Assembly: GCA_947591495.1 (NCBI GenBank)
Contig: CANQDG010000004.1
Coordinates: 5,358 to 69,357 of the forward strand
Direction of reading: 5' to 3'
Origin: an uncultured Bacilli bacterium
GTDB lineage: Bacteria > Bacillota_I > Bacilli_A > ML615J-28 > CAG-313
Length of the DNA stretch: 64,000 nucleotides
Of the stretch, positions 1 to 36,417 are shown piece by piece. Position 1 is the stretch's first letter; each line of letters starts with the position of its first letter. A program made the translations under genes and the position numbers. Below the pieces are notes generated by a model. That model made no database searches. It saw nothing but the letters and a program-made list of their open reading frames with translations, and was not told where the DNA came from.

Positions 1-21
1 TTTCCTTTTTATTTTTTACAT

Positions 22-62
22 AAAAAAACAATACAAGAAAAAGATCTCTTGTATTGTTTTTT
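22..62. terminator. Bidirectional rho-independent terminator hairpin
   Basis: Perfect 11-bp stem acaatacaaga (28-38) / tcttgtattgt (47-57). An A-run lies to the left and a T-run to the right. It sits just past the stop of the small minus-strand ORF 61..201. Confidence 0.6.
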
Positions 63-201
63 ATTGATCATCACTATCTAAAATTATTGGCTTTAAATAA
101 GGACAGCTTTTAAGACTAATGAAACATCCACCATTATAAAAGCAATCACCACATTTAGCACTTTTAACTTTCTTAACTTTTTTTGTTATTTTTATTTCCA
201 C
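61..201 (-). CDS. Small Cys-rich protein, 46 aa (VEIKITKKVKKVKSAKCGDCFYNGGCFISLKSCPYLKPIILDSDDQ); below the length cutoff of the ORF track
   Basis: GTG start 7 nt after a GGAGG box (aaaggaggaaaaaagtGTG). TAA stop lies immediately before the hairpin at 28-57. Four Cys in a CxxC...C...C pattern. Confidence 0.4.
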   Translation of the reverse strand: MEIKITKKVKKVKSAKCGDCFYNGGCFISLKSCPYLKPIILDSDDQ

Positions 202-310
202 TTTTTTCCTCCTTTTTTATTATTATAAACAAAATTTAAAAACATATGTAAACAATTTTCAAAACATTTTAGAGTATGCTATAATATAACCAAAAGGAGA
301 ACTGATAACA

Positions 311-1426
311 ATGATTTGGATTAACGATAAAAGTTATGAATTTATCAATAATATGACCATTTTTACATTTTTAAAAGATCACAAAATCTTTCTTCCTGCC
401 CTTAATGATGATTTAAGTAAAACTGATAATGAACTATGTATGGTAGAAATTGAAAATCAAAGAGAACTTGTTAATGCGAAAACAACTTATTTAGAAGATG
501 AAATGATTATACATACTAACTCACAAAAAGTCTATGATTATTTAAATGAATATATATATAATCCTTTAAAAGCCTCTACAAATCCTAATCTAGAAATAAA
601 CGCAAATGATTATAATATTTTATTATGTGATGAAGAATTATATGATGAATGTTTATTAAAATATAAAAATACTTATTTTAATGATATTGTTACAACTCAA
701 ATGGGCAAAATGATTTTTTTAGTTGAAGCAAGCAATCAAATGATGCTTCACATTGAAAAAAACTTACAAAACAAAAAACATTCTAATCTTGTTATAAGTG
801 ATTATAGCATTATTAGATATCCCAAAAGTTTACAAGTTAATCTAAAAGAGCCCGAAGAAATCCTTGCACAGTTGATAAAAAACTATTATAAGGTTGCTTT
901 AAAAATTACTAAAGAAATAAAAATAGTTTACATTACAAATAAAAAAGAAAAACTAATTAGTTCTTATGCTAAAAATATTCAATACAAATCTTTTATTGAT
1001 TATATTGTAAACTATGATGATTTTATTTTAAATGAAAGTTTTGAAGTTAGTTATGATGGCCTTATAAGCAAAGCGCTTTATTTTCGTCCAATCGATAAAA
1101 AAAATATTTGTTATCAAGATTTTTTTAATATTTTTAAAGATATGGGCTTTAAAGAAAAATCTTTTAGTATTGTAACTAATGAAGATGCTAAAGAAGTTGT
1201 CGCAACTTATCAAGGCTTTACTGTGAAATGTTTATTTACGACAAAATTTCTTAGTCCATCTAAGATCCAAAAGACCGACTATGACTTTATTTTTATTATA
1301 TCAACTAATGATTTAACAATAATTAGTAAAGAAAAAAATATTTTAAAAGACGATAACTTAAACAAAATATATCGTAAAATTTTAATTAAACCAAATTCTA
1401 GTGATCTTTTTAGGAGATTTGTATGA
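311..1426 (+). CDS. Hypothetical protein with a degenerate 2Fe-2S-ferredoxin-like N-terminus
   Basis: RBS aaaaggaga upstream of the ATG and a 4-nt ATGA overlap with the next gene. The first ~70 aa resemble the N-terminus of the HydA in this window (ELCMVEIENQRELVNAKTTYLEDEMIIHT versus SSCRVCVVEIEGMRSLKNSCTV) but keep only one Cys. The rest is unrecognisable. Confidence 0.6.
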   Translation: MIWINDKSYEFINNMTIFTFLKDHKIFLPALNDDLSKTDNELCMVEIENQRELVNAKTTYLEDEMIIHTNSQKVYDYLNEYIYNPLKASTNPNLEINANDYNILLCDEELYDECLLKYKNTYFNDIVTTQMGKMIFLVEASNQMMLHIEKNLQNKKHSNLVISDYSIIRYPKSLQVNLKEPEEILAQLIKNYYKVALKITKEIKIVYITNKKEKLISSYAKNIQYKSFIDYIVNYDDFILNESFEVSYDGLISKALYFRPIDKKNICYQDFFNIFKDMGFKEKSFSIVTNEDAKEVVATYQGFTVKCLFTTKFLSPSKIQKTDYDFIFIISTNDLTIISKEKNILKDDNLNKIYRKILIKPNSSDLFRRFV

Positions 1427-3318
1427 ATATATCTAAAACATTATTTAAAAATCTCACTAGGTGTCCAAGTTTTATGGGACTTTATGATTTATATCTTAAC
1501 CGCACCTTTAATGAGGTTAAAACAATTGATGGCAAAAAGATTAATCAAGAATTGTTAGATGACATTCTAAACTTAGATGATAATTTATTTAATGAAGAAC
1601 AAGAAAAATTGCAAGAATTACTTTATCAAATGTTTGATGATAGTGATGGTCATGACTTATTAGAACAAACTAATCCTCAAATGGAAGCCTTTAAAGATGT
1701 TTATAAAGAAGTTGAAATGCTTGCTGCAGAGCATGTTGAGGCTTTACTTGGAAAAAGTGTTCAGTTTTCAGATGATACCCATCAACAAAAGAAATTTTCT
1801 TATCGCTTAAATGGTAATGAATTTTATTGCTATTTAGATATCTATTATGAAGATGAAAAAAGCATTAAAGTTTTTGAAGTAAAAACAACAACTTCTTCTA
1901 AATTTGATGATCTTCATATTACGAAGAATAAGCAAACAAGGCCGCTTTTTATAAAAAAAGAAGACCACATCTTTCATCTAAATAAAACAATTGAGCCTAG
2001 TTTATTACAAAATAAATTAAATAAAATAGCAGATCGCTATGGTAAGGTTGGTAAATATATATATGATATTGCTATTCAAAGACATATTATTGAAAATAGT
2101 ATGGAAAATGCAGGCAAAAATGTAGACAAAAAGGTAGAATATTACTTAGTCGTACTTGATGCTAAATATCGCTTTAGTGGTAAATATGATGAAAACAATC
2201 AACCTCTTTATTTACCAGATCAAGATGGTAATGAACTATTCAATGTTTATGATGTAACAGAGTTAACGACACCTTATCAAGAACAAATTTTAAATGAACG
2301 CACTCTTCTTTTTGAGTGGCAGGAAAACTTGGCAATTAAAACGAATGTTTTAGGAAAACATTGTCAATATAAAGAAACTACTCAGTGTAAATTTTGCCCT
2401 GTATGTATGAAAAAGGTTTTAAAAGATGGTTCAATTTTGGAATATTTAGATAAACATCGGGCCTTTTTTGTGCAAAATGAAAAAGGACGTGATAAAAGGG
2501 TTGATGTTTATGATTTGATTAATCAAGGTCTTACCACGATTCCAGATGCCAAACCATATCTACGCAAGCCTAATAATCTTATGCAATGTGATACTTATGA
2601 AAATAATTATATATATATCAATAAGCCACAAATTGAGGCTTCTTTAGCAAATATTTCGTATCCAATTTATTATTTAGATTTTGAAAGTTACAATTCACCA
2701 CTTCCACGATTTTTCCAAGAGTCACCTTATATGCAATCTTTATTTCAATATTCTTTACATGTTGAGAAGGCTAAAAATCAGTGTGATTTAGTAAAAGATC
2801 ACAAAGAGTTCCTTGCGAAAGATCATTTAGACCATCGTGAAGAATTAATCAAACAATTAATTGAAGATATTGATTTAAGTCAAGGGGGAACGGTTATTGT
2901 TTATAATAAATCATTTGAACAAACGCGTTTAAAAGAACTTGCAAGAATATTTCCAAAATATCAAGAAGCTCTATATAATATTCATGATCATATTTATGAT
3001 TTATTAGATTCTTTAAAAGGTAAAGCCGATCAAGTAGAAGACAAAGATACACAACCAACCTTTAATTATTATCATCCATTACTTCATGGTTCCTTTTCTA
3101 TTAAGAAAGTTTTACCGCTTTTTAGTGATTTATCATATCAAAATTTAGAAGTTAAAAATGGTACTGAGGCGATTGTAACATATGGTATGTTACCTTATTT
3201 AACCGAACAAGAATATAAAGAAAAATATTTAGCATTAAGCGTTTATTGTAGGCAAGATACTTGGGCGATGGTTGAAATATTAAGAGGCCTTTACGAGTTA
3301 ATAAAAAACCCTAATTAG
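1423..3318 (+). CDS. DUF2779-type protein: Cas4/AddB-like Fe-S PD-(D/E)XK nuclease domain fused to a DEDD-type exonuclease-like domain
   Basis: Motifs: TRCPSF, DIYYEDEKSIKVFEVKTT, CQYKETTQCKFCPVC, then YYLDFES, VYNKSFEQTRL and CRQDTWAM. Confidence 0.8.
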   Translation: MNISKTLFKNLTRCPSFMGLYDLYLNRTFNEVKTIDGKKINQELLDDILNLDDNLFNEEQEKLQELLYQMFDDSDGHDLLEQTNPQMEAFKDVYKEVEMLAAEHVEALLGKSVQFSDDTHQQKKFSYRLNGNEFYCYLDIYYEDEKSIKVFEVKTTTSSKFDDLHITKNKQTRPLFIKKEDHIFHLNKTIEPSLLQNKLNKIADRYGKVGKYIYDIAIQRHIIENSMENAGKNVDKKVEYYLVVLDAKYRFSGKYDENNQPLYLPDQDGNELFNVYDVTELTTPYQEQILNERTLLFEWQENLAIKTNVLGKHCQYKETTQCKFCPVCMKKVLKDGSILEYLDKHRAFFVQNEKGRDKRVDVYDLINQGLTTIPDAKPYLRKPNNLMQCDTYENNYIYINKPQIEASLANISYPIYYLDFESYNSPLPRFFQESPYMQSLFQYSLHVEKAKNQCDLVKDHKEFLAKDHLDHREELIKQLIEDIDLSQGGTVIVYNKSFEQTRLKELARIFPKYQEALYNIHDHIYDLLDSLKGKADQVEDKDTQPTFNYYHPLLHGSFSIKKVLPLFSDLSYQNLEVKNGTEAIVTYGMLPYLTEQEYKEKYLALSVYCRQDTWAMVEILRGLYELIKNPN

Positions 3319-3332
3319 TTTTAGGGTTTTTT
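3303..3332. terminator. Bidirectional terminator between convergent genes
   Basis: Stem aaaaccctaa (3305-3314) / ttagggtttt (3321-3330), flanked by A and T runs. Confidence 0.6.
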
Positions 3333-3338
3333 ATGCTA

Positions 3339-4640
3339 TTAGAAAAGAAAAATAGCTTCTAAATCATAGGCTAACGCCTTAATAATTTTCACTTTTTGAA
3401 TGCTTCCTATCGTAATTTTGTCATCATAAGAAGTATTAACATATATATAACCATCAACATCATCAGGTGCATAAGCAAAACTTCGAACGACGTAACATCC
3501 ATGATAGTCATCATAACGATCAACTAAAACACTATAAGTTTTTCCAACTTCTTTTTGATTAAGTTCATAAGATATTTGTAGTTGCAAACGCATTAAAATA
3601 TCTTTTCGCTTTTCCATAACATTTTGATCTACTTTAGGATACATTAAGAATCCCTTTGTATCTTCTTCATCAGAATAAGTAAAAATACCTAAATGATTAA
3701 ATTTAATAGTTTTAACAAAATCAACTAATTCTAAAAAGTCCTCATCATCTTCAGTAGGAAAGCCCACCATTAAAGTTGTTCTAATTGTCGCATCAGGAAT
3801 TTCATGCCTTATTTTATTAAATAAATCTACTAAAAAGGCTTTACTTCCTCTTCTTGCCATATTAGTTAAAATCTTATCACTGGCATGTTGAATTGGTATA
3901 TCAAAATACTTAGCAACGCGCTGATTATTTTTGATTTCCGCAATCAATCCATCAGTAATTTCATCGGGATATAAATAAAGCACCCGAATTACTTTAATGC
4001 CATCTAGCATACTGATACTTCTTAATAAGTCTTCTAAACGTTTACCTTCATTTAAATCAGTTCCATAACGGGTAGTATCTTGTCCTATTAAAGTAATCTC
4101 TTTGACGTTTTGTTTGATTAGCGTTTTAGCTTCTTCAATGATTTTTTCAAAAGGTCGACTTCTAAATGGTCCTCTAATTAAAGGAATAGCACAATAATTA
4201 CAACGATTATTACATCCTTCAGAAATTCGTAAGTAAGCAGTATGAGAAGGGGTTGCAATTAAGCGATTGTTGTAATCCATTTTATATGAATAATTGGTAT
4301 TTAATATTTTTTGAAACAATTCATCTATATGACTATAATCTTTAATGGGAAAATAGATATCAACCTCAGGGATACTTTGTTTTAAATCTTCTAAATATCG
4401 TTCAACTAAACATCCCATCGCAATAATAATTTTTTTACCCTTATTCTTTGTAACATCTAAAATGGTATCAATAGCTTCTTTTTTGGCACTTTCAATAAAT
4501 CCACAAGTATTGACTACAATAATATCAGCTTGGGATAAATTAGTCGTGATAGTTAGATTGTATTTTTGGGCTACTCCTAAAAATAATTCTGAATCAATTA
4601 GATTTTTAGCACAACCCAAAGAAATCATTCCTAATTTCAT
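3339..4640 (-). CDS. rimO: Ribosomal protein S12 methylthiotransferase (MiaB/RimO radical-SAM family)
   Basis: N-terminal ISLGCAKNLIDSE, radical-SAM CNNRCNYCAIP, C-terminal TRAM-like segment; 433 aa. Confidence 0.85.
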   Translation of the reverse strand: MKLGMISLGCAKNLIDSELFLGVAQKYNLTITTNLSQADIIVVNTCGFIESAKKEAIDTILDVTKNKGKKIIIAMGCLVERYLEDLKQSIPEVDIYFPIKDYSHIDELFQKILNTNYSYKMDYNNRLIATPSHTAYLRISEGCNNRCNYCAIPLIRGPFRSRPFEKIIEEAKTLIKQNVKEITLIGQDTTRYGTDLNEGKRLEDLLRSISMLDGIKVIRVLYLYPDEITDGLIAEIKNNQRVAKYFDIPIQHASDKILTNMARRGSKAFLVDLFNKIRHEIPDATIRTTLMVGFPTEDDEDFLELVDFVKTIKFNHLGIFTYSDEEDTKGFLMYPKVDQNVMEKRKDILMRLQLQISYELNQKEVGKTYSVLVDRYDDYHGCYVVRSFAYAPDDVDGYIYVNTSYDDKITIGSIQKVKIIKALAYDLEAIFLF

Positions 4641-4784
4641 TTTGGACTCCTTTATTTTATATATATATTAACATTATACAACAAAGACATAAATTTTTCA
4701 AATTTATTAGGTTTAATTTTTGACCTTTATAAGTTTTTTTGTTATAATATATATATCTTAAATAATTTAGAAAGAAGGAATAAA

Positions 4785-5360
4785 ATGGCTAAAGAATTTA
4801 TTGTTGAAACATCTGCTCGTCATGTGCACCTAACAGAAGCCGATTTTAAAGCTTTATTTGGAACTGATGCAACCCTTACAGTGAAAAAGTATTTATCACA
4901 ACCTGGACAATTCGCTGCCGAAGAGCGAGTTAGTATTGTTGGCCCTAAAAAAGAAATTGCTAATGTATCAATTTTAGGTCCTTTTAGAAAAGCCTCTCAA
5001 GTTGAGCTTTCCGCAACCGATGCAAGAAGTATTGGTGTTCCCATTGTTATTAGAGAATCAGGTGATTTAGAAAACACCCCTGGATGTAAAATTGTTGGTC
5101 CAATTGGTAGCATTGAACTAAAGGAAGGGGTAATCGTGGCTAAACGTCATATTCATGCTACTGAAGCTGATGCTAAAGAACTTCAAGTTAAAGATAAAGA
5201 TATCGTTAAAGTTGAAGTTAACACGCCTGAAAGATCATTAATTTTTGGTGATGTAGTTGTAAGAGTTAGTAATACTTATGCGCTTGCTATGCATATTGAT
5301 ACGGATGAATCAAACGCTGCTGGTATGGTGCCAAATGTAATGGGAAAAATTGTTAAATAA
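4785..5360 (+). CDS. pduL: Phosphate acyltransferase PduL
   Basis: Duplicated PduL signatures SARHVHLTEADFKALFG and AKRHIHATEADA. Consensus promoter TTGACC-17-TATAAT lies upstream. Confidence 0.85.
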   Translation: MAKEFIVETSARHVHLTEADFKALFGTDATLTVKKYLSQPGQFAAEERVSIVGPKKEIANVSILGPFRKASQVELSATDARSIGVPIVIRESGDLENTPGCKIVGPIGSIELKEGVIVAKRHIHATEADAKELQVKDKDIVKVEVNTPERSLIFGDVVVRVSNTYALAMHIDTDESNAAGMVPNVMGKIVK

Positions 5361-5496
5361 AAAAACTAAAAAACTATAAAAGATGCTTAAGGAAAATATC
5401 AAAATCCTTAAAGCATCTTTTATTTTTCGTTATATGTGCAAAAAAAAACAAAATAGTGTATAATTATAGATAATTAAAAATATCACGAAAGGATCT

Positions 5497-5733
5497 ATGA
5501 TCAAAATGATTTGCCCTAACTGTCATAATGAAAATCGATATGATGCGTTAACTTGTGATTTTTGCATGGCTAAACTACCCATGACAACCAAGCGTCAAAA
5601 AGAAATTAAACAAAGACAAAAATTAGAAAAGAAAAATAAACTTAGTAAATCAATTACAAAACTATTAGGATTATTACTAGGACTTGTAGTCATTATTTTA
5701 ATTATTGTAGTTGTTTATTTAATAAGGAAGTAA
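5497..5733 (+). CDS. Zinc-ribbon membrane protein
   Basis: CPNC...CDFC zinc ribbon followed by a C-terminal hydrophobic helix. The stop is 3 nt before mnmG. Confidence 0.55.
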   Translation: MIKMICPNCHNENRYDALTCDFCMAKLPMTTKRQKEIKQRQKLEKKNKLSKSITKLLGLLLGLVVIILIIVVVYLIRK

Positions 5734-5736
5734 AAT

Positions 5737-7653
5737 ATGAGTCCACTTATTAACAAAGAAGCAATCAAAAAACAATATGATGTATTAGTAGTAGGTGGTG
5801 GACATGCCGGAATTGAGGCCGCTCTTGCGACAAGTCGAGTTGGACTTTCCACTATTATGGTATGTGGTAGTTTTAAACGAATTGGTAACATGCCTTGTAA
5901 TCCTTCTATTGGTGGACCGGCTAAAGGTATTTTAGTGCGTGAAATTGATGCCTTAGGTGGACAAATGGCTAAATCAGCTGATAAAACAGCTCTTCAAGTT
6001 AAGATGTTAAATAGTTCTAAAGGTCCAGCAGTTAGAGCTATGCGTGTTCAATCTGATAAATTAAAATATGCAAGGTATATGCAAGAAGTGGTCACAGCTG
6101 AACCTCATTTAGATATATATATCGCTCTAGTTGATCGCCTTATTAGTTCATCATCTAACCAAATAGAAGGTGTTATCCTTGAAGATGATACAAAGATTAT
6201 GGCTAAAGCTGTTATTATTACGACTGGTACTTATTTATCATCACGTGTGCTCTGTGGCAAAAATGCTACACCATCAGGCCCTGATGGTGAGAAAACTAAT
6301 TATGGTTTATCAAAATCGTTAAAAGCAATGGGCTTTAATCTAATTAGATTAAAAACGGGCACACCACCTAGAATTTATACCGACTCCATTGATTTTTCAA
6401 AAGCTAAAATTGAACTAGGAACTAATATGCCTTTAACTTTTAGTTATGAAACTGATCCAAAAGATATGTTAGAATATGATAAACAAGTCCCATGTTACCT
6501 TATTTATACTACTTCAAAAACTCACCAAATTATTTTAGAACATCTTCATGAATCAAGTATGTATTCGGGGATTGTTGAAGGAGTAGGACCAAGATACTGC
6601 CCATCAATTGAAGATAAAATTGTAAGGTTTGCTGACAAAGAGCGCCACCAATTATTTTTAGAACCAGAAAGTTTAGAAATTAATGAAACTTATCTTCAAG
6701 GTTTTTCAACTAGTATGCCTCATGAAGTTCAAGAACAAATGGTTCATTCCCTTATCGGATTTGAAAATGCTAAAATTGCTAAATATGCTTATGCCATTGA
6801 ATATGATGCCATTAATCCCTTAGAGTTAAAACCATCACTTGAAAGTAAAAAGATAAGTGGCTTATTCTTTGGTGGTCAAGTTAATGGCACTAGTGGTTAT
6901 GAAGAAGCCGCTGCTCAAGGCTTAATAGCAGGCATCAATGCTATTAATTATATCAAACATAATCCACCCCTTATCTTAAGACGAGATGAGGCCTATATTG
7001 GTGTTTTAATTGATGACTTAGTAACTAAAGGAGTCACTGATCCTTATAGAATGTTAACCTCAAGAGCTGAATATCGCTTACTTTTAAGACATGATAACGC
7101 TGAAGAAAGATTAATTAAATATGGCTATCAAGTAGGATTAATTAAAGAAAAACGTTATCAAGCCTATCTTGATAAACGAGTTGCTATTGATAATGAAAAG
7201 AAGCGTCTTCAAACCTTAAAGATAACTCCTAAAATGCAAGTTAATGAATACTTAAACCAAATTAACTCAGCCCCTCTTCATGAAGGAATGTTTGCGATTG
7301 AGTTAATGAGACGCCCTGAAATTAATTATCAAGATCTTGTTAAAATGTTAAATTTAGATAATCCTTTAAATTATGAACTAGGCGATATGTTAAATATTGA
7401 AATTAAATATCAAGGTTATATTGATAAAGCTTACAAAGAAGCATCCCGCGTCTTAAAACTAGAAAGCCTCAAGATACCATCTGATCTTTCTTATGATGAT
7501 GTATCTAATCTTGCAAGCGAAGCACGGGAAAAGCTTACACGTATTAAGCCTGTCACAATTGCACAAGCAGCTAGAATTAGTGGAGTTAATCCCGCTGATA
7601 TTTCTATTCTCATTGTTTATCTTGAAAGCCTAAGAAGGAAACAACATGAATAA
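5737..7653 (+). CDS. mnmG: tRNA uridine 5-carboxymethylaminomethyl modification enzyme MnmG (GidA)
   Basis: FAD motif VVGGGHAGIEAA, NPSIGGPAKG and GPRYCPSIEDK; 638 aa. Confidence 0.97.
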   Translation: MSPLINKEAIKKQYDVLVVGGGHAGIEAALATSRVGLSTIMVCGSFKRIGNMPCNPSIGGPAKGILVREIDALGGQMAKSADKTALQVKMLNSSKGPAVRAMRVQSDKLKYARYMQEVVTAEPHLDIYIALVDRLISSSSNQIEGVILEDDTKIMAKAVIITTGTYLSSRVLCGKNATPSGPDGEKTNYGLSKSLKAMGFNLIRLKTGTPPRIYTDSIDFSKAKIELGTNMPLTFSYETDPKDMLEYDKQVPCYLIYTTSKTHQIILEHLHESSMYSGIVEGVGPRYCPSIEDKIVRFADKERHQLFLEPESLEINETYLQGFSTSMPHEVQEQMVHSLIGFENAKIAKYAYAIEYDAINPLELKPSLESKKISGLFFGGQVNGTSGYEEAAAQGLIAGINAINYIKHNPPLILRRDEAYIGVLIDDLVTKGVTDPYRMLTSRAEYRLLLRHDNAEERLIKYGYQVGLIKEKRYQAYLDKRVAIDNEKKRLQTLKITPKMQVNEYLNQINSAPLHEGMFAIELMRRPEINYQDLVKMLNLDNPLNYELGDMLNIEIKYQGYIDKAYKEASRVLKLESLKIPSDLSYDDVSNLASEAREKLTRIKPVTIAQAARISGVNPADISILIVYLESLRRKQHE

Positions 7654-8335
7654 TATTATTTTAAACATTCAACCCTTATCAGCTTTACAACTAGAACAAT
7701 TACATCAATATTACGAGCTTTTAATTACTAAAGCTAAAATAATGAATCTTACAACGATTACCGAAGAACAAGAAGTATATATCAAACATTTCTATGATAG
7801 TCTTTTAGTTTTAAAAGAAGAATCATCATTAGATGGTAAAACTCTTTTAGATCTTGGTAGTGGTGCAGGACTTCCGGGGATTGTTTTAAAAATTGCCTAT
7901 CCAGCACTTAAAGTAACACTCCTTGATGCAACCCAAAAAAAGTGTCAATTTTTACAAGAAGTAATCGACACTTTAGCCTTAAAAGATATCACTGTTATAT
8001 GTGATAGAGCTGAACATTTCATCAAAGAAAAACACGAAACCTTTGATTTAGTTGTCGCACGTGCGGTTGCAAGCCTTAATATTCTTTCAGAATTAGCCCT
8101 TGGTTTTGTCAAAAAAGGGGGTAAATTTCTTGCGATGAAAGGGGCTTCTTATCAAGAAGAATTAAACAGTGCAACCAGTGCAATTACTATTTTAGGGGGA
8201 AAATTAACTAATAAATATCAATATGAATTACCCCTTTTGATGGGAACTAGATGTATTTTAGAAATAACTAAAGAAAAAAATACCCCTCATAACTATCCTA
8301 GACCTTATGCCAAAATCAAACAAAAACCCCTTTAA
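7646..8335 (+). CDS. rsmG: 16S rRNA (guanine527-N7)-methyltransferase RsmG (GidB)
   Basis: SAM motif LLDLGSGAGLPGIVLKI and VARAVA. Overlaps the mnmG stop, the conserved mnmG-rsmG order. Confidence 0.93.
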   Translation: MNNIILNIQPLSALQLEQLHQYYELLITKAKIMNLTTITEEQEVYIKHFYDSLLVLKEESSLDGKTLLDLGSGAGLPGIVLKIAYPALKVTLLDATQKKCQFLQEVIDTLALKDITVICDRAEHFIKEKHETFDLVVARAVASLNILSELALGFVKKGGKFLAMKGASYQEELNSATSAITILGGKLTNKYQYELPLLMGTRCILEITKEKNTPHNYPRPYAKIKQKPL

Positions 8336-8349
8336 AACTGGAGGTGCAC

Positions 8350-9135
8350 ATGAGTAAAATAATATCAATTGTCAACCAAAAAGGAGGAGTAGGTAAGACT
8401 ACAACAACGATTAATCTAGGTGCTTCACTTGCTTACTATAACCAAAAAGTCCTAATCATCGACTATGATCAACAAGCAAATGCAACCATTGGACTAGGAA
8501 TTAATCGCGAAGACATTTTATTTGATGTTACTGATTTTTTCACTCATATTGGCTTTTTAAGAAAAGCTATTATTAAAACTAAAATTAAAAATCTAGACTT
8601 AATAGCCTCATCTATTAAACTTGCTAACATTGAAGAAAGCCTTTATATGATTCCAGATAAAGAACAATTACTAAAACGTAAACTAGACATGATTAAAGAT
8701 GAATATGATTTCATCTTAATTGATTGTCCCCCATCACTTGGCTTAATTGTTGATAATGCTTTATACGCCAGTGATTCGGTTTTAATACCGGTTGAATGTG
8801 GGTTTTATGCTTATGATGCCTTAACCCAAATGATTAATAAAATTGATAAAATTCAAGCTAGTAAAGATATCGAAATAGAAGGTATTTTACTAACTAAACT
8901 AGATAATAAAAATACTTTAGGATATGATATCGTCGAAAAAGTTAAATTCTTATTCCCTGAAAAAATCTTTCATACCATCATTACCCGTTCTTCCCATTTA
9001 CAAGAAGCACCCATGCATGGTAAAAGTGTCTTAGATTTTTCTTTTAATTCAAGAGGAGCTAAAGAATATCGCATGCTCGCTGAAGAAATCCTAAACAATA
9101 ACAAAATTCCTATTTTAAAGGAGCTAAAAATATGA
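8350..9135 (+). CDS. parA: ParA/Soj-type partition ATPase
   Basis: Deviant Walker A NQKGGVGKTTT and DCPPSLG. I prefer the ATG at 8350 (GGAGG 5-6 nt upstream) over the GTG at 8344 given in the ORF track. Confidence 0.9.
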   Translation: MSKIISIVNQKGGVGKTTTTINLGASLAYYNQKVLIIDYDQQANATIGLGINREDILFDVTDFFTHIGFLRKAIIKTKIKNLDLIASSIKLANIEESLYMIPDKEQLLKRKLDMIKDEYDFILIDCPPSLGLIVDNALYASDSVLIPVECGFYAYDALTQMINKIDKIQASKDIEIEGILLTKLDNKNTLGYDIVEKVKFLFPEKIFHTIITRSSHLQEAPMHGKSVLDFSFNSRGAKEYRMLAEEILNNNKIPILKELKI

Positions 9136-29997: not shown

Positions 29998-30660
29998 ATG
30001 AACCCAAAACAAAGATATAAAGAATTAATCAAAGAAAACGATAATGCCATTTTACAATTAAGTGAAGATTATCAAGTAATTGCTAATGCTTATACTAAAA
30101 AAGCAAGAGGTTATGGAACTAAAAGCCTTGATACCGAAGTAAGAATTAAAGAAGTTATAGAAGAGTTAATTTCTTTTGACGAACAGCATCTTGATAAAAA
30201 CGAAGCCATAGGTAATATGACAGATTATATTGAAAATAATATCAAAAAAATTGCCAAAGCTCCTGGTCGTGCAAATAAAATCAAAGAAATAATTGCTGTA
30301 AGTATTTTTATTTTATTAATAGCTGGTTATTTTGTTCTTAATACATGGCTTAATCGTAAACGTCCTCTTGCTGCCCCAACTGATATTACAATTGATCTTG
30401 ATGAAGAAGGATGCTTTAAACTTACTTGGACTTATAATGTTCTTGCAACTGAAGGATACGAAGTAATCATTTATAAAGATGGCGAAAAGTTAAAAAGCTT
30501 AACGGTTGATAAAATGGTAAGTGAAGGAACTAATACGCAACTTTTTTCCTCAAAAATTGCATATGAAGAAAATCATGTATATATCTTTGAAATAACGGCT
30601 AAAGGAACAGATGATTATAAAGAATCACAAAAAGCGCAAATCACTTATCCTATAGAATAA
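29998..30660 (+). CDS. Hypothetical single-pass membrane protein with an FN3-like C-terminal domain
   Basis: Central hydrophobic helix IIAVSIFILLIAGYFVL. No catalytic motifs. Confidence 0.55.
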   Translation: MNPKQRYKELIKENDNAILQLSEDYQVIANAYTKKARGYGTKSLDTEVRIKEVIEELISFDEQHLDKNEAIGNMTDYIENNIKKIAKAPGRANKIKEIIAVSIFILLIAGYFVLNTWLNRKRPLAAPTDITIDLDEEGCFKLTWTYNVLATEGYEVIIYKDGEKLKSLTVDKMVSEGTNTQLFSSKIAYEENHVYIFEITAKGTDDYKESQKAQITYPIE

Positions 30661-30884: not shown

Positions 30885-31484
30885 ATGGCACGTTATACAG
30901 GCCCAAGTTGGAAACAATCAAGAAGACTTAAATTTTCTGTTTTAGAAAATGGTAAAGAATTACAAAAAAGAAATTATGCTCCAGGTCAACATGGTCAAAG
31001 AAGAGCAAAACTTTCTGAATATGGTCTTCAATTACAAGAAAAACAAAAAGTTCGTTTTACATATGGTGTAAGCGAAAAACAATTTAGAAACCTTTTCAAT
31101 AAAGCAGAAAAATTAGAAGGTAAACATGGTGAAAATTTCTTATTCTTACTAGAATCAAGACTTGATAATCTAGTATATAGAATGGGATTTGCGACAACTC
31201 GTCGTCAAGCAAGACAATTAGTTAACCATGGTCATGTTGTAGTAGATGGTAAAAAAGTTGATATTCCATCATATACAGTAAAACCAGGTCAAACAATTGC
31301 TATGCGTGAAAGTTCTAAAAATTTACAAATTGTTAAAGATGCTTTAGAAAATTGTGTTTCACGTTTAGGTTTTATTAGCTTTGATGAAGCAACTGGTGTA
31401 GGTACATATGTACGTTTACCAGAACGTAGTGAAATCTTACCTGAAATTCGTGAGAACTTAATCGTTGAATTCTATAACAGATAA
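30885..31484 (+). CDS. rpsD: 30S ribosomal protein S4
   Basis: [25 protein letters not shown] and [15 protein letters not shown]. Confidence 0.97.
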
Positions 31485-31640
31485 TAATTAAAATTAAAGG
31501 ATGTTAATCGTTGATTCTATTAGCATCTTTTTTTGCTTTTTTATAATAAAAGATCGTAGTATAAAATGATAATGTTAATGCTATAATATATAAGTAATAC
31601 AAAAATCGTAACAAAATGTTACGATTTTATGAATATTTTA

Positions 31641-31669
31641 TTGACTAAAAGAATATTATTTGATATAAT
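31641..31669 (+). promoter_or_regulatory. Promoter of the ATPase/Toprim-like operon
   Basis: TTGACT (31641-31646), 17-nt spacer, TATAAT (31664-31669). GGAG lies 9 nt before the ATG at 31684. Confidence 0.65.
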
Positions 31670-31683
31670 AGGAGTATAAAAAA

Positions 31684-33069
31684 ATGAAAAGGAAAAAAGA
31701 AATGGAAAATTTAGTAGTAAAATTAGATAGTATAAAAATGATTAATTTTAAAAATATTGTTAAAAGTGAAATATCATTTTCTGATAAAAATAAAATTCTT
31801 AATACAGTTGGTATTTATGGACAAAATGGCAGCGGCAAAACTGCTGTTGTTGAAAGCTTAAACATTTTAAAATCTTTATTAATGAATATAGCCTTTCCTA
31901 AAGATTTATATTATTATATAAATGTTGTAAATAATGATGCTAAATTAGATTATAAGTTTATTTTTAATAAAGATAAAGAAAAATATATTGTTAAATATTA
32001 TGTAAAATTTACCAAAAATGTTAAATATAATAGTGAAAAAAATATTGAAGAAAAAATAGTTATTTTATCAGAAGAAAAAATAAAAATATTTAATATTGAT
32101 AAAAAATTATTAGCAAGCATTGATTGTAAAAATGATCAAAAAAAAATTAGTATCAATTGTCAAGATTATACTGATAGCACCGATCAAGATCTTATTTCTA
32201 ATGATATTGCAATAGCAACAGTTCATTTATCTAATCAATTATCAACAACCATTATTTTTCAAGATATGTTTAGAGAAAATATAAAAAAGAATACCTTATT
32301 AAAAATGATTTTAGATAGTATGCATTTTAATGCAATAACTAATTTATTTGTTATAGGAATGAAAGAAACAAGTCTTATTTCGGCATTAGATAATTTACCA
32401 CTTACTATTCGTACATCAAATAATAAAAAGACAATTACTTCAGGAACTGCCCTACTTAATTTATTTTCTCCATCAACTATACCAATTATTATTTTAGACA
32501 CCATTACAAAAGAATTAGAACGAATAAATCTTGTTATGACGCAACTAATTCCTAATATGAAAATAGGATATAAAACCATTAGTGAAGGTTTGGACAAACT
32601 AGGCAATCCCACTATTACTATTCAACTCGTTTCCATTATTGGTGATGCACAAATTCCCTTAAAATATGAATCTGAAGGTATCAAAAAATTAATTGCTTTA
32701 TGTAGTGTTCTAATTAGTGTATACAATAATGAGGCTGTATGTTTAGTGGTAGATGAGTTAGATTCTGGTATTTTTGAATATCTTTTAGGTGAAATAGTAA
32801 AAATTTTGCATAGTGAGGCAAAAGGACAATTAATTTTTACTTCGCACAATTTACGCTTGCTAGAAGTATTACCAAAAGAATGCATAATTTTTTCTACTAC
32901 TAATCCTCAAAAACGTTTTGTTAAAATGGCAAATGTTAAACCTAATCATAATTTAAGAGATTTTTATTATCGAACAATTTTATTAGGTGGCCAAAAAGAA
33001 TTATTATATAACGAAACAGAAGAATATGAGATAGAAAGGGCTTTTAGAATATGTCAGCCCCAAGCATGA
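31684..33069 (+). CDS. ABC/SMC-like ATPase of the AAA_15/AAA_21 type (same clade as OLD, GajA, AriA, AbiLi)
   Basis: Walker A GQNGSGKT, signature-like YESEGIKKLIAL, Walker B CLVVDELDSGIFEY and H-loop IFTSHN. Confidence 0.8.
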   Translation: MKRKKEMENLVVKLDSIKMINFKNIVKSEISFSDKNKILNTVGIYGQNGSGKTAVVESLNILKSLLMNIAFPKDLYYYINVVNNDAKLDYKFIFNKDKEKYIVKYYVKFTKNVKYNSEKNIEEKIVILSEEKIKIFNIDKKLLASIDCKNDQKKISINCQDYTDSTDQDLISNDIAIATVHLSNQLSTTIIFQDMFRENIKKNTLLKMILDSMHFNAITNLFVIGMKETSLISALDNLPLTIRTSNNKKTITSGTALLNLFSPSTIPIIILDTITKELERINLVMTQLIPNMKIGYKTISEGLDKLGNPTITIQLVSIIGDAQIPLKYESEGIKKLIALCSVLISVYNNEAVCLVVDELDSGIFEYLLGEIVKILHSEAKGQLIFTSHNLRLLEVLPKECIIFSTTNPQKRFVKMANVKPNHNLRDFYYRTILLGGQKELLYNETEEYEIERAFRICQPQA

Positions 33070-33779
33070 AGAAGCTAATTTTATTTATAGTAGAAGGGCC
33101 GAGTGATAAAGCTTATTTATATCCAGTGAAAAAAATGGTAGTGCAACATTTTAATAATAGACTTGCATTTAAAGTTACAAGATGTGATTTGTTAGTAAAA
33201 CCAGATACTAATTATATTAATATTGAAATCAAAGTAGCAGTAGCTGTTCAAGAATATTTAGAATTGTATGGTCTTGAATATAGTGATATAAAACAAGTTA
33301 TACATATTGTTGATTTAGATGGTACTTTCATTGATCAAAAAAATGTCGAGAGTGATCCTTCTTTATTAAGAGGTCAAACAATATATTTTAGAGACAAAAT
33401 AACAAATATAAATAAAGATAATATTATAAATCGCAACAATAAAAAAGCTAAATGTTTAGATGTTTTGTATAATCTTAAAGAAATTAATTATGGAACATTG
33501 AAAACTATCCCTTATAGAGTATATTATTTTTCTACTAATATCGATGATTATTTTTATGGAAACCAAAATGCGACCGATGAAGAAAAGAAAGAATATTCAA
33601 ATGCAATTTCTGATAAATACGTTAATTGTCCCAACGAATATCGAAATATGATAGAAAGACTATATTGCGTTAAAGGAAATTATTTTGAAACATGGGATTT
33701 CGTTAAAAAAAATAATCAATCATTAAATAGATGGACTAATTTTAATAAATTTTTTACTGAAATAATAGACAAACTTTAA
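33051..33779 (+). CDS. Toprim-like protein (RloB / DUF4435 / DUF4276-like)
   Basis: LILFIVEGPSDKAYL (Toprim Glu) and VIHIVDLDGTFID (DxD). The alternative start ATG at 33066 gives a 4-nt ATGA overlap with the ATPase stop. Confidence 0.7.
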   Translation: MSAPSMKKLILFIVEGPSDKAYLYPVKKMVVQHFNNRLAFKVTRCDLLVKPDTNYINIEIKVAVAVQEYLELYGLEYSDIKQVIHIVDLDGTFIDQKNVESDPSLLRGQTIYFRDKITNINKDNIINRNNKKAKCLDVLYNLKEINYGTLKTIPYRVYYFSTNIDDYFYGNQNATDEEKKEYSNAISDKYVNCPNEYRNMIERLYCVKGNYFETWDFVKKNNQSLNRWTNFNKFFTEIIDKL

Positions 33780-33960
33780 TAAAGCGTATTTTGCAAAAAT
33801 TAAAACTAATAATGGAAGTGATAACAGATTAATTTCTTTTATCACTTTTATATATTATGCTTTAATATAATTATTCAAAGCAATAACTAATAAATAAAAC
33901 CATTTGTATTTTTAAATAAAATTTAGTATAATATATATGAAAATAATAAAGGAGGAAACA

Positions 33961-36417
33961 ATGAATAAAAAATTAAGAAAAATTTTTACTTTATTTAGTG
34001 GCATTTTTGTTTTAACATTCTTCTTATTTTTCAGCACTGCCTGCAATAAAAAATATAAAGTAACATTTATTGCGGACGACGAAGTATGGAAAATAATAGA
34101 AGTTAAAAAAGGTGCAACAGTAGAAAAAGTAGAAGCTCCTAGCAAAGAATATTATGCTTTTGTTGATTGGATGGATGGCGATAACGTTTTTGATTTTTCC
34201 ACTAAAATTAAAAAAGATTATCAATTAACAGCAGCATATGAATGCACATGTGAACATGATTGGCTTGATGCAACGTGTGTTGAACCAGAAAGATGTAGCA
34301 TATGTTTAACAACTAGAGGTGAAGCTTTAGGTCACTCTTGGGTTGATGCAACCTATGATGCACCAAAAACTTGTGAAAGATGTGGCATTACCGAAGGCGA
34401 AGCTATTCCTAAACCAAAAGAAATTGAAACAGAATTTGATCAAGTTACAATCTATGTTGGTCAAAGCGTTCAAATAAAGGCTAAAGTATTCCCTGCAAAT
34501 GCTTCACAAGATATTGAATATAGTATAAGATATGCTGATGCAGGTGAAGGAACTTTTGATGAGGAAACCGCAACCTTTAATGCACTTCATGAAGGTATCG
34601 CATATTTGACAGTTAATTCAGTTGATGTTAAATATGTAAATAAAGTAATTACGATTAATATTTTACATCCACTATTAGAAGAAGAAGTTTATGAGGCTTT
34701 CAATATTATGACAGGTTTAGGCAATAATGCTTCAACCGATATTGAAATTAATTATCATACATATAATACTAAATCATTTGTTGAATATACAACGGCTGAT
34801 GATCCTAACTTTGGTAATTTATCGACCATCGCAGGTGAGGGCTATTATTTTACAGAAGGAACCGATATCGTTGTTGCGCCATTTACTCCAAGAAATGTTT
34901 ATCGCGTATCGCTTCATGATTTAACTCCTAATACAGAATATATTTATCGAATTAATTTAGGTAATGATACTTATAGCGAAGTATACCATTTTAAAACGGC
35001 TAATAATGATGGTGGTGATTCAGCATTTATTTTAATGTCAGATACGCACTATGCTTTAACAACTGATGCAGATGGTAATGAAGTATCTCATGGTTCTGAA
35101 ATTAGCGAACAAGCAATTCAACAAGCGCTTGCGCTTAATCCTAATGTTGGCTTTATTGGCACAGCCGGTGATACAGTCGATCGAGGCGGTAGTTCTAAAA
35201 TTTGGAATATTTTCTTTGAAAAATCAGAAAGTTTAAAGACATTACCAAGAATAGGTATTGCCGGAAACCATGAATATTATATTGATGATAAAACGGCTCA
35301 ATCAGATGGAAGATATCAAAAAGCTCATTATGCAACCGCTAATAATGGACCAGAAGGACAAATCGGTCTTAGTCAATACTTCATTTATAATGATATTTTA
35401 TTTATCGCTGTTGATAATGAAACTGCAGCTGGCCGTGATAATTTATTAGCATGGATGGAAGATTTACTTGCTAATAAAGAATATCGTTATAGTATTATAA
35501 TGATGCATCGCCCTGTTTATCATGACAATACTGATCGTGATGAAAAATTCTTAGCTATCTTTGAAAAATACGCTGTCGATTTAGTTGTAAGTGGTCATTA
35601 TCATAGTGATGATTATGTAGCTAATTATTATGAAGGCAATATATCAACTGATCAAGGTTTAGGTGTTAATTACATTACTCTTTCATTTAGTGGTGCTAAG
35701 AGCCAATCCGATTCTAATAAGCCATCGGTTTATTTATTTGAAACTCATGATGGTACCATCAAAATTACAAGAATTGATATTGATGGTAAAGTTAAGAGCA
35801 CAAGAACAGTTACTTCTAAACGTAACAAACAAGTAGTTGAAGATACTAAAGAAAATTTAATTAATTCAATTAATCCTGTTTATGATAGTCAAACTGCTAC
35901 ATATACAATTAATGTTAAAAATACTTTCTATGGTAATGTTAAAAAAATGACAGTTGTTGAAACTACTCGTGAAGAAATTAATGTCAATATGTTTTTCCCA
36001 ACATCTTCATATACAAGCCTTAAAATTACTAATATCATTCCTAACTATGAATATAATTTCCGTATAACCTTAGAGTTTATGGATGGCACAACAGAAGTTG
36101 TCGAAAAGGCCCTAAATTTGGCTCCAGAATTGAATTTAAGAGTTAGCAAGGTTACTGCTGATACCGCAAGTTTATGGTATGATGAGTTAGATAGTAGTCT
36201 AAATCAAATTATAAAATACTTTGAAGTATATGTTAATGGTCAAAAATGGGATGAATTCAACTATTTAGATGAATACTATTATCCCGTAACTTTCTATCGA
36301 TTAAAAAATTTAGAAAGTAATACAACCTATAATGTTACATTTGTTGCTATCGACCGAAATGGTAAAAGAATGTTTAGTTATGATCTTAAAGATAGTTTTA
36401 CAACTTTAGAAGCATAA
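33961..36417 (+). CDS. Surface lipoprotein: Listeria-Bacteroides-type repeat, Cys-rich repeats, Big_2-like domain, calcineurin-like metallophosphoesterase, FN3-like domains
   Basis: aggagg RBS then ATG at 33961. Lipobox FFSTAC. Phosphoesterase motifs GDTVDRG, GNHEY, MMHRP and SGHYH. Confidence 0.8.
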   Translation: MNKKLRKIFTLFSGIFVLTFFLFFSTACNKKYKVTFIADDEVWKIIEVKKGATVEKVEAPSKEYYAFVDWMDGDNVFDFSTKIKKDYQLTAAYECTCEHDWLDATCVEPERCSICLTTRGEALGHSWVDATYDAPKTCERCGITEGEAIPKPKEIETEFDQVTIYVGQSVQIKAKVFPANASQDIEYSIRYADAGEGTFDEETATFNALHEGIAYLTVNSVDVKYVNKVITINILHPLLEEEVYEAFNIMTGLGNNASTDIEINYHTYNTKSFVEYTTADDPNFGNLSTIAGEGYYFTEGTDIVVAPFTPRNVYRVSLHDLTPNTEYIYRINLGNDTYSEVYHFKTANNDGGDSAFILMSDTHYALTTDADGNEVSHGSEISEQAIQQALALNPNVGFIGTAGDTVDRGGSSKIWNIFFEKSESLKTLPRIGIAGNHEYYIDDKTAQSDGRYQKAHYATANNGPEGQIGLSQYFIYNDILFIAVDNETAAGRDNLLAWMEDLLANKEYRYSIIMMHRPVYHDNTDRDEKFLAIFEKYAVDLVVSGHYHSDDYVANYYEGNISTDQGLGVNYITLSFSGAKSQSDSNKPSVYLFETHDGTIKITRIDIDGKVKSTRTVTSKRNKQVVEDTKENLINSINPVYDSQTATYTINVKNTFYGNVKKMTVVETTREEINVNMFFPTSSYTSLKITNIIPNYEYNFRITLEFMDGTTEVVEKALNLAPELNLRVSKVTADTASLWYDELDSSLNQIIKYFEVYVNGQKWDEFNYLDEYYYPVTFYRLKNLESNTTYNVTFVAIDRNGKRMFSYDLKDSFTTLEA

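Follow-up and report, generated by a model that had tools for sequence, protein, structure and literature searches.

What is the two-gene unit that lies directly behind rpsD in this DNA, and does it belong to any of the defense systems named so far? The window, i.e., the whole 64,000-nucleotide (nt) stretch that was analyzed (contig CANQDG010000004.1 of an uncultured Bacilli bacterium), carries two overlapping open reading frames (ORFs) at 31684-33069 (ORF1, 461 amino acids) and 33051-33779 (ORF2, 242 amino acids). The original prediction had read the pair as an ABC-type ATPase with a Toprim-like partner; both ORFs are present as it had described them, and the motifs that it quoted are present in the translations and invariant in homologues. 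We consider it probable, at roughly 65%, that the pair is a mobile two-gene ABC ATPase-Toprim nuclease module with a defense or toxin-antitoxin-like role that forms a separate, unnamed subfamily. The locus is made up of the following parts.

31496-31540, forward strand: terminator hairpin and T-run of rpsD, host sequence and left boundary of the insertion.
31541-33900 (boundaries within about 20 nt either way), forward strand: inserted cassette, consisting of hairpin/operator, promoter, two genes, and terminator.
31602-31628, no strand assigned: 12-bp perfect palindrome followed by TTTT (core CGTAACAAAATGTTACG, 31606-31622), directly 5' of the -35 element.
31641-31669, forward strand: promoter with TTGACT (-35, 31641-31646), a 17-nt spacer, and the extended -10 TGnTATAAT (31661-31669).
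31670-31674, forward strand: ribosome-binding site AGGAG of ORF1, 9 nt 5' of its ATG.
31684-33069, forward strand: ORF1, a 461-residue Rad50/SMC-type ABC ATPase of the AAA_21/AbiLi-like clade (from Pfam, PADLOC, AlphaFold/Foldseek, and motifs).
33035-33040, forward strand: ribosome-binding site AAAGGG of ORF2 within the 3' end of ORF1, as read from the sequence.
33051-33779, forward strand: ORF2, a 242-residue Toprim-like putative metal-dependent nuclease with a helical C-terminal half (alternative start at ATG 33066).
33807-33857, forward strand: terminator-like hairpin followed by a U-rich tract at the cassette end (-17.3 kcal/mol).

As had been proposed, ORF1 is an ABC ATPase; it is of the SMC/Rad50 type, and its nucleotide-binding site is intact. 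It carries a Walker A motif (GQNGSGKT, residues 46-53), a signature-like motif (YESEGIKK, 328-335), a Walker B/D-loop (VVDELDSG, 354-361, extending to 362), and an H-loop (FTSHN, 385-389), and the residues G46 to T53, E329, S330, G332, K335, D357, E358, D360, and T386 to N389 are invariant across 36 homologues that are 35 to 73% identical. The Pfam matches were AAA_21 (expectation value [E] of 1.7e-12) and SMC_N at 4.3e-08 (33.3 bits, below its 40-bit gathering cutoff). Among the PADLOC models AbiLi scored best (7.8e-33, 112 bits), then AriA (PDLC02980, 1.2e-14) and mad3 (3.7e-14); matches to PtuA (1.6e-6), HEC-01A (4.7e-6), and GajA (3.8e-4) were weak, and that to GajA was confined to the N-terminal P-loop region (residues 13 to 64). 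No NCBIfam model came near its threshold (antiphage_MADS3 reached 17.8 bits against a cutoff of 420). The AlphaFold model, with a predicted local distance difference test score (pLDDT) of 83, matched Rad50, SMC heads, and PtuA of Septu and retrons in Foldseek (E of 1e-12 to 1e-9, with query template modeling [TM] scores of about 0.4 to 0.46). Sequence searches of the PDB with both proteins and the profile of the partner family returned the RecF P-loop region and chance matches only.

Two parts of ORF1 stand apart from the ABC core. The insert between the Walker A and signature motifs is predicted to be largely beta, and residues 419 to 443 (window positions 32938-33012) have a pLDDT below 50, yet they are among the most conserved of the family (NLRDFYYRxIxLGGQKE). 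This segment is a candidate for one that becomes ordered on binding the partner or another protomer, as in oligomerization. More than 6,000 homologues of ORF1 were found in Clostridia and other taxa, typically about 460 amino acids long and about 40% identical. One of 652 amino acids (P0038) was considered as a possible ATPase-partner fusion and rejected, being an ATPase with a longer insert.

For ORF2, membership in the Toprim superfamily as a remote member is well supported but not proven, because the motifs, the topology, and many subthreshold matches all point to it. The motifs IVEG (E15-G16) and VDLDG (D88, D90, G91) were checked across 18, 43, and 149 sequences. Among the 149 family representatives, which are 25 to 38% identical to ORF2, G16, D88, D90, and G91 are invariant, E15 and D46 are kept in at least 90%, and R128, K132, K179, and R227 are conserved basic residues. 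Toprim domains carry their Glu and DxD at set strand positions, as in RloB, DUF4276, RNase M5, and OLD (PMC12065111), and the AlphaFold model of ORF2 (pLDDT of 90.4) shows strand 8-14 leading directly to E15 and strand 80-88 ending in D88-x-D90. Thus, in the predicted structure the Glu follows strand 1 and the DxD closes strand 3, where a Toprim signature would have them. When the 149 representatives were compared with Pfam one by one (E of ≤0.05), 28 matched Toprim, 26 matched DUF4276, and 11 matched OLD-like_TOPRIM, with no other family matched by more than three. DUF4276 gave the best E value (8.6e-5) and the second-highest member count, all 65 of these Toprim-related matches are subthreshold, and a scan of 43 members gave the same pattern. 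The earlier description of a Toprim-like Glu and DxD thus stands, with the fold itself below significance.

The pairing of the two genes is strict. All 86 loci in which an ORF2 homologue was located, 80 by scanning a single genome of each species and the others by look-ups, have an ORF1-type ATPase gene immediately upstream in the same orientation. The tblastn matches of the two genes are separated by -6 to +126 nt, mostly 20 to 40 nt. When ORF1 is aligned with ATPases that are paired with an ORF2-type protein, the identity along the whole length is 32 to 41%. The hosts are Bacillota (many Clostridia, Erysipelotrichaceae, Negativicutes, and Bacilli), Collinsella, Sutterella, Sphaerochaeta, Cetobacterium, and Bacteroidota; the two genes are strictly linked across phyla, have codiverged, and are translationally coupled. 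The partner family is large: a word-indexed search returned just 22 relatives of ORF2, and an exhaustive profile search of 1.84 billion representatives returned 1,741 clusters (counted at 50% identity) at an E of ≤1e-3 and 640 at ≤1e-30, nearly all of 220 to 270 amino acids. The labels of the named members that were looked up read hypothetical or uncharacterized, RefSeq entries from Clostridium perfringens, Halanaerobium, Ruminococcus albus, and the Bacillus cereus group included; the one exception is a stray label from JGI, "leucyl aminopeptidase." A possible orphan is found on the [Eubacterium] eligens megaplasmid NC_012780.1 (L090, 6016-7416), where an ORF1-type ATPase, 38% identical, adjoins an IS256 transposase and neither the annotation nor tblastn shows an ORF2-type partner; the copy may be decayed or an orphan.

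The cassette had been described as wedged after rpsD, and comparison with relatives bears this out. Three other contigs, found by looking up exact matches to rpsD, have an identical rpsD and the same pair. A metagenome scan for relatives of rpsD led to L107 and L108, whose proteins are 92% (rpsD), 90% (pgk), and 86% (tpiA) identical to those of the window and whose gene order is the same (pgk, tpiA, a 220-amino-acid unknown, rpsD, and a large phosphatase gene). Their rpsD-phosphatase gap is about 105 nt and holds neither ORF1 nor ORF2, and their rpsD terminator and phosphatase promoter and ribosome-binding site align to the two edges of the intergenic DNA in the window. Since the closest relative found has an empty site with matching edges, about 2.36 kb (roughly 31541-33900) is inserted between rpsD and the phosphatase gene. 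The pair was present in none of 80 rpsD loci that were fetched, and a metagenome scan with the phosphatase protein gave no matches. No integrase or transposase was found at the insertion site, and a search for a target-site duplication in the form of flanking direct repeats gave only AT-rich matches at chance level.

Close homologues, with 57 to 68% partner identity, sit at unrelated genomic places: next to an hsdR-hsdM-hsdS locus that also has an integrase and spare hsdS genes (L005), after ecfA-ecfA-ecfT-truA, adjoining a LysR regulator gene, and among insertion sequence remnants with a helix-turn-helix gene and a fragment of a type-I-restriction-like helicase. Plasmids of Ruminococcus albus, Bacillus thuringiensis, B. 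mycoides, Lysinibacillus, and Paenibacillus, some of them megaplasmids, carry copies, one copy is on the Clostridioides phage-plasmid pCD1602_4, and some copies adjoin integrases or XerS. Because of the empty site, the unrelated loci of close homologues, and the plasmid and phage-plasmid copies, the cassette is a mobile, self-contained promoter-to-terminator unit. L005 (positions 1-8729) holds the closest homologous pair in NCBI, and the two extra hsdS genes of its type I restriction-modification (R-M) locus are oppositely oriented, an arrangement that looks like a phase-variable specificity shufflon.

The control elements move with the genes. A consensus promoter of the pair's own had been claimed; it matches the consensus at 11 of 12 positions, and every base of it is kept in five close-clade cassettes that occupy different sites, while the overall frequency of promoter-like matches across the AT-rich stretch is not above chance. 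These five cassettes share an upstream region at a fixed distance of 76 to 80 nt from the ATPase ATG, in which the palindrome core CGTAACAAAATGTTAC(G), the T-run, TTGACT, TGnTATAAT, AGGAG, and the first codons (ATGAARAGG) are invariant or nearly so; AGGAG occurs in four of the five aligned cassettes, and L005 has GAGGTG instead. The palindrome CGTAACAAAATGTTACG with its T-run is conserved more strongly than the coding sequence. The fetched loci, 1.58 Mb in all, contain the palindrome pattern 15 times, 12 of them at this upstream position; besides the window the palindrome is carried by L005, L095, L098, and L101 with an invariant core, and it is absent in more distant family members. It may be an insulating terminator against read-through, which would be useful behind rpsD, or it may be an operator. 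The hairpins claimed on both sides of the genes were found as well: the rpsD terminator (31496-31531 folds at -11.5 kcal/mol, z of -3.6), the palindrome (z of -5.0), and the hairpin behind ORF2 (z of -6.8). A second terminator-like match (31829-31844, minus strand) lies within the GC-rich Walker A codons of ORF1 and is almost certainly due to chance. Rfam and tRNA scans of the region gave no matches.

The overlap of the two genes was confirmed, and the ATGA at 33066-33069 is present as claimed, but it is probably not where ORF2 begins. As judged from the sequence, ATG 33051 is the likelier start because AAAGGG lies 10 nt upstream of it, 10 of the 11 close homologues with full alignments keep the short N-terminal extension that it adds, and ATG 33066 lacks a purine-rich site upstream (the preceding sequence is CAGCCCCAAGC). 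The overlap would then be 19 nt instead of 4 nt, and relatives overlap by 8 to 22 nt. The AT-richness that had been pointed out is real in that ORF1 and ORF2 have GC contents of 24.2% and 25.1% versus 31.5% for rpsD. As an argument it is weak: the two genes are only about 1.2 to 1.4 standard deviations below the other genes of the window (29.9 ± 4.0%). Foreign origin on grounds of composition was dropped, because GC content and GC at third codon positions both fall inside the spread of the window's other genes.

A number of results weigh against reading the pair as an ATPase-Toprim nuclease defense module of a separate subfamily. No model of the Toprim clan is significant for ORF2 itself. Pfam gave nothing at an E of <1 except a stray YkyB (0.074), NCBIfam gave no match at an E of <1, PHROGs gave none at ≤0.01 for 43 family members, and the single PADLOC match, to AbiLii, had an E of 0.0042 (15.7 bits over 26 profile positions). 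Although the predicted structure places the acidic residues at Toprim positions, a Foldseek search of the PDB returned nothing for it at an E of ≤1e-3, the top matches being flavodoxin-like lumazine synthase and PurE, with topoisomerase II weak, and the solved structures of AriB, GajA, and OLD were absent from the 50 best matches listed. Profile-profile alignment (hhalign) of the ORF2 family with 32 RloB sequences gave an E of 0.063 over 27 columns, and with four Firmicute RloBs added it gave 0.0096 over 30 columns, covering strand 1, E-G, and helix 1 only. HEC-01, a PADLOC candidate that likewise joins an ABC ATPase to a Toprim protein, gave no defense in Escherichia coli assays (10.1101/2024.01.29.577857). 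The immediate neighbors of the pair in 80 genomes are mostly housekeeping genes, with defense genes few and scattered, and toxicity, action on phage, and nuclease activity of this subfamily are proposed by analogy.

The alternative that survives best is that the pair is a very divergent AbiL/RloAB system, in which ORF2 would be a true RloB that has drifted past the PF13707 and AbiLii models and should be filed under AbiL. With AbiLi/AbiLii of Lactococcus and RloA-RloB the pair shares adjacent, co-oriented, overlapping genes with the ATPase first, an AAA_21-type ATPase of about 450 amino acids, and a Toprim-type partner of about 200 to 250 amino acids with an N-terminal hhhhEG. AbiLi is the best PADLOC match of ORF1 and AbiLii the only one of ORF2, the best match of ORF2 among viral structures (BFVD) is an RloB-like protein (probability of 0.98, E of 3.3e-3, TM scores of 0.37 and 0.41; a topoisomerase II and a primase are found further down), and RloAB is linked to type I R-M loci, such as the one that a close homologue of the cassette abuts. 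With a larger query profile and relaxed settings, hhalign aligned the ORF2 family with RloB colinearly over 201 columns (E of 0.02) with E-G and DxD/E in register, which is suggestive and not significant.

As a positive control we used a genuine pair from Klebsiella plasmid pUUH239.1, annotated "ATP-binding protein" and "RloB family protein," whose sizes (451 and 206 amino acids), gene order, and overlap agree with those of the cassette. Its RloB scored strongly against PF13707 (2.2e-32) and AbiLii (8.2e-21) and its ATPase against AbiLi (4.3e-82, 274 bits, far above the score of ORF1), whereas ORF2 and the partners from C. perfringens and Halanaerobium gave nothing or an E of 0.004 against the RloB models. 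The defining component of AbiL/RloAB, a partner of the RloB family, was thus not found in ORF2, and neither PF13707 nor DUF4435 is among the 25 Pfam families listed for the 149 members, where Toprim, DUF4276, and OLD-like_TOPRIM lead. The second motif of ORF2 is DxDG versus D-x-E/D in RloB, the C-terminal half is unlike that of RloB, and the stricter profile alignments given above amount to an E of 0.01 to 0.06 over about 30 columns. The matches of ORF1 to five RloB-paired ATPases (1e-5 to 1e-11) are essentially limited to the ABC motifs, and these ATPases have a conserved tail of another sequence (RRDQIWFxEK...YLxGxYGxIP). Clostridium has both types of pairs. We therefore regard a divergent AbiL as unlikely and continue with the separate subfamily.

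The remaining named systems share the design and differ in its parts. PARIS also joins an ABC ATPase sensor to a separate Toprim effector in a two-gene operon on mobile elements, but ORF2 has no DUF4435 or PADLOC AriB match and is 28 kDa versus 35 kDa for AriB, the AriA match of ORF1 is much weaker than its AbiLi match, the predicted ORF1 insert is rich in beta structure and not a helical bundle, and AriA structures are absent from the 50 best Foldseek matches listed for ORF1. For Mad3-Mad4 of MADS, the mad3 profile covers nearly all of ORF1 and the ORF2 family has its subthreshold matches to DUF4276; however, ORF2 itself has no DUF4276 or mad4 match, ORF1 is far below the MADS3 cutoff, and the flanks (rpsD and the phosphatase gene) include no methyltransferase or other MADS gene. 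In OLD and in GajA of Gabija, an ABC ATPase is likewise coupled to a Toprim nuclease whose metal ligands are E and DxD; both are single fused polypeptides, whereas the cassette has two ORFs, and no helicase, the added partner in OLD classes 2 and 4, is nearby, while Gabija needs GajB. From HEC-01 the pair differs in that ORF2 has no HEC-01B match and that of ORF1 to HEC-01A is weak, and from Septu in that ORF2 has no match to PtuB (HNH) and that of ORF1 to PtuA is weak. The doubt voiced earlier about any named family was thus well placed, with ORF2 failing the AbiLii/RloB, AriB, Mad4, and HEC-01B models and the genuine RloB passing that for AbiLii/RloB.

The family libraries searched were Pfam (2025 copy), NCBIfam 20, PADLOC-DB 2.0.0, and PHROGs 4; the subfamily is unrepresented in all four, and no paper describing it was found. 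The two-gene design that pairs an ABC ATPase with a Toprim protein in defense or toxin-antitoxin-like systems is well known, with AbiL, RloAB, and PARIS grouped as ATPase-Toprim systems (PMC13064643); this subfamily is separate and so far unnamed. It may further be, and here we would put the odds slightly below even, a distinct and widespread immune family that is sister to AbiL/RloAB, PARIS, and Mad3-Mad4, with a nuclease diverged beyond the models of the four libraries and an ATPase with its own beta-rich insert and conserved tail. If so, the family probably has its own trigger and target specificity. Gut Clostridia, C. perfringens, the Bacillus cereus group, Collinsella, and other taxa carry partners that the PADLOC 2.0.0 models searched do not recognize.

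A second alternative takes the pair as a toxin-antitoxin addiction module that stabilizes mobile elements or genomic islands and has no anti-phage role. Copies on megaplasmids and the phage-plasmid or beside integrases or XerS would suit such a module, as would the architecture, which is that of the type II toxin-antitoxin-like pairs of NetFlax with an ATPase antitoxin and a Toprim toxin (PMC10440598). Of these, the AAA (node D29)/TOPRIM_OLD pairs of C. algidicarnis (D44) and S. agalactiae (D60) are likewise bicistronic, with an ATPase and a small Toprim protein; the NetFlax Toprim proteins, RloB-type and others, are toxic in E. coli and are neutralized by the cognate ATPase (PMC10440598), and D44 is described as RloB-homologous. 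The neighborhood also lends itself to this view, with defense genes rare among the neighbors. The nearest neighbors in the 80 genomes fall into 157 Pfam families with no conserved third gene, and because they are mostly housekeeping genes, guilt-by-association support for defense is weak; a defense-island signal was accordingly dropped, only scattered defense matches being found. However, the cassettes of the window, L095, and L101 have only chromosomal housekeeping or metabolic genes around them and no mobile element that they could stabilize, and the characterized relatives that were reviewed (PARIS, AbiL, OLD, and Gabija) act in phage defense (PMC11464382, PMC13064643). A pure addiction module is thus improbable in our view, and we infer the case for immunity from architecture and homology.

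If the pair is a defense module, its mode of action can be sketched by analogy with PARIS and with the ATPase-neutralized Toprim toxins of NetFlax. In PARIS, a hexamer of AriA holds AriB and frees it on sensing Ocr, and AriB cleaves tRNA (PMC11464382); P2 Old cuts tRNA as well (PMC12445682). By that model ORF2, a putative metal-dependent nuclease, would be toxic when free, and ORF1 would oligomerize, keep ORF2 inactive, and serve as the sensor, with its conserved C-terminal tail as the candidate segment for partner binding or oligomerization. A phage-derived trigger or loss of the ATPase would release or activate ORF2, which might then cut RNA, for which the tRNA of AriB and P2 Old is the precedent, or DNA, and the cutting would arrest growth and abort the infection. 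For any specific step of this scheme we would give less than an even chance. That ORF2 is instead a non-nuclease, a Toprim/flavodoxin-like fold that binds a nucleotide or metal and acts as a regulator or adaptor of the ATPase with the effector elsewhere or absent, would agree with lumazine synthase and PurE as its best PDB matches and with the lack of a significant nuclease-family match for ORF2 itself, but it is highly improbable given four invariant acidic residues exactly at Toprim positions together with the conserved basic residues, 65 subthreshold matches concentrated on Toprim-clan families, and no other conserved candidate effector nearby.

Modules that join an ABC ATPase with a Toprim protein (OLD, Gabija, PARIS, and AbiL) rank with the most successful immune designs of bacteria, and the mechanisms solved recently include the sensing of phage anti-restriction proteins and tRNA cleavage. 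The cassette is not a conceptual surprise, but a good compact candidate for experiments and for a new family model. It represents a large branch of the design, with at least 1,741 partner clusters and thousands of ATPases, that goes unseen by Pfam, NCBIfam, PADLOC 2.0, and PHROGs and is present in medically and industrially relevant Firmicutes; naming and modeling the family would improve counts of defense systems in gut and clostridial genomes. As a compact 2.1-kb two-gene system, it lends itself to the questions of how trigger specificity depends on the different inserts and tails of the ATPases and which substrate is cut by a minimal Toprim effector of 28 kDa, and the insertion/empty-site pair with the conserved promoter and palindrome makes it a defined, clonable mobile unit.

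The genes flanking the cassette showed some features of their own. An exact 11-nt repeat, TTAATCGTTGA, occurs at the 3' end of rpsD (31458-31468) and in the stem of the rpsD terminator (31504-31514), and the surrounding 21 nt or so are similar, as if the end of rpsD had been partly duplicated. The phosphatase gene (33937-36417) encodes 826 amino acids with an N-terminal hydrophobic segment ending in ...FFSTAC and with a Listeria-Bacteroides repeat, a purple-acid-phosphatase N domain, a metallophosphoesterase domain, and fn3. The protein shares just 54% identity with its counterpart in the relative with the 92% identical rpsD, and in three further relatives (L109 to L111) the gene is inverted. 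Between tpiA and rpsD lies a 220-amino-acid ORF (29998-30660) without a Pfam match, whose position is kept in relatives though it is only 30 to 53% identical.

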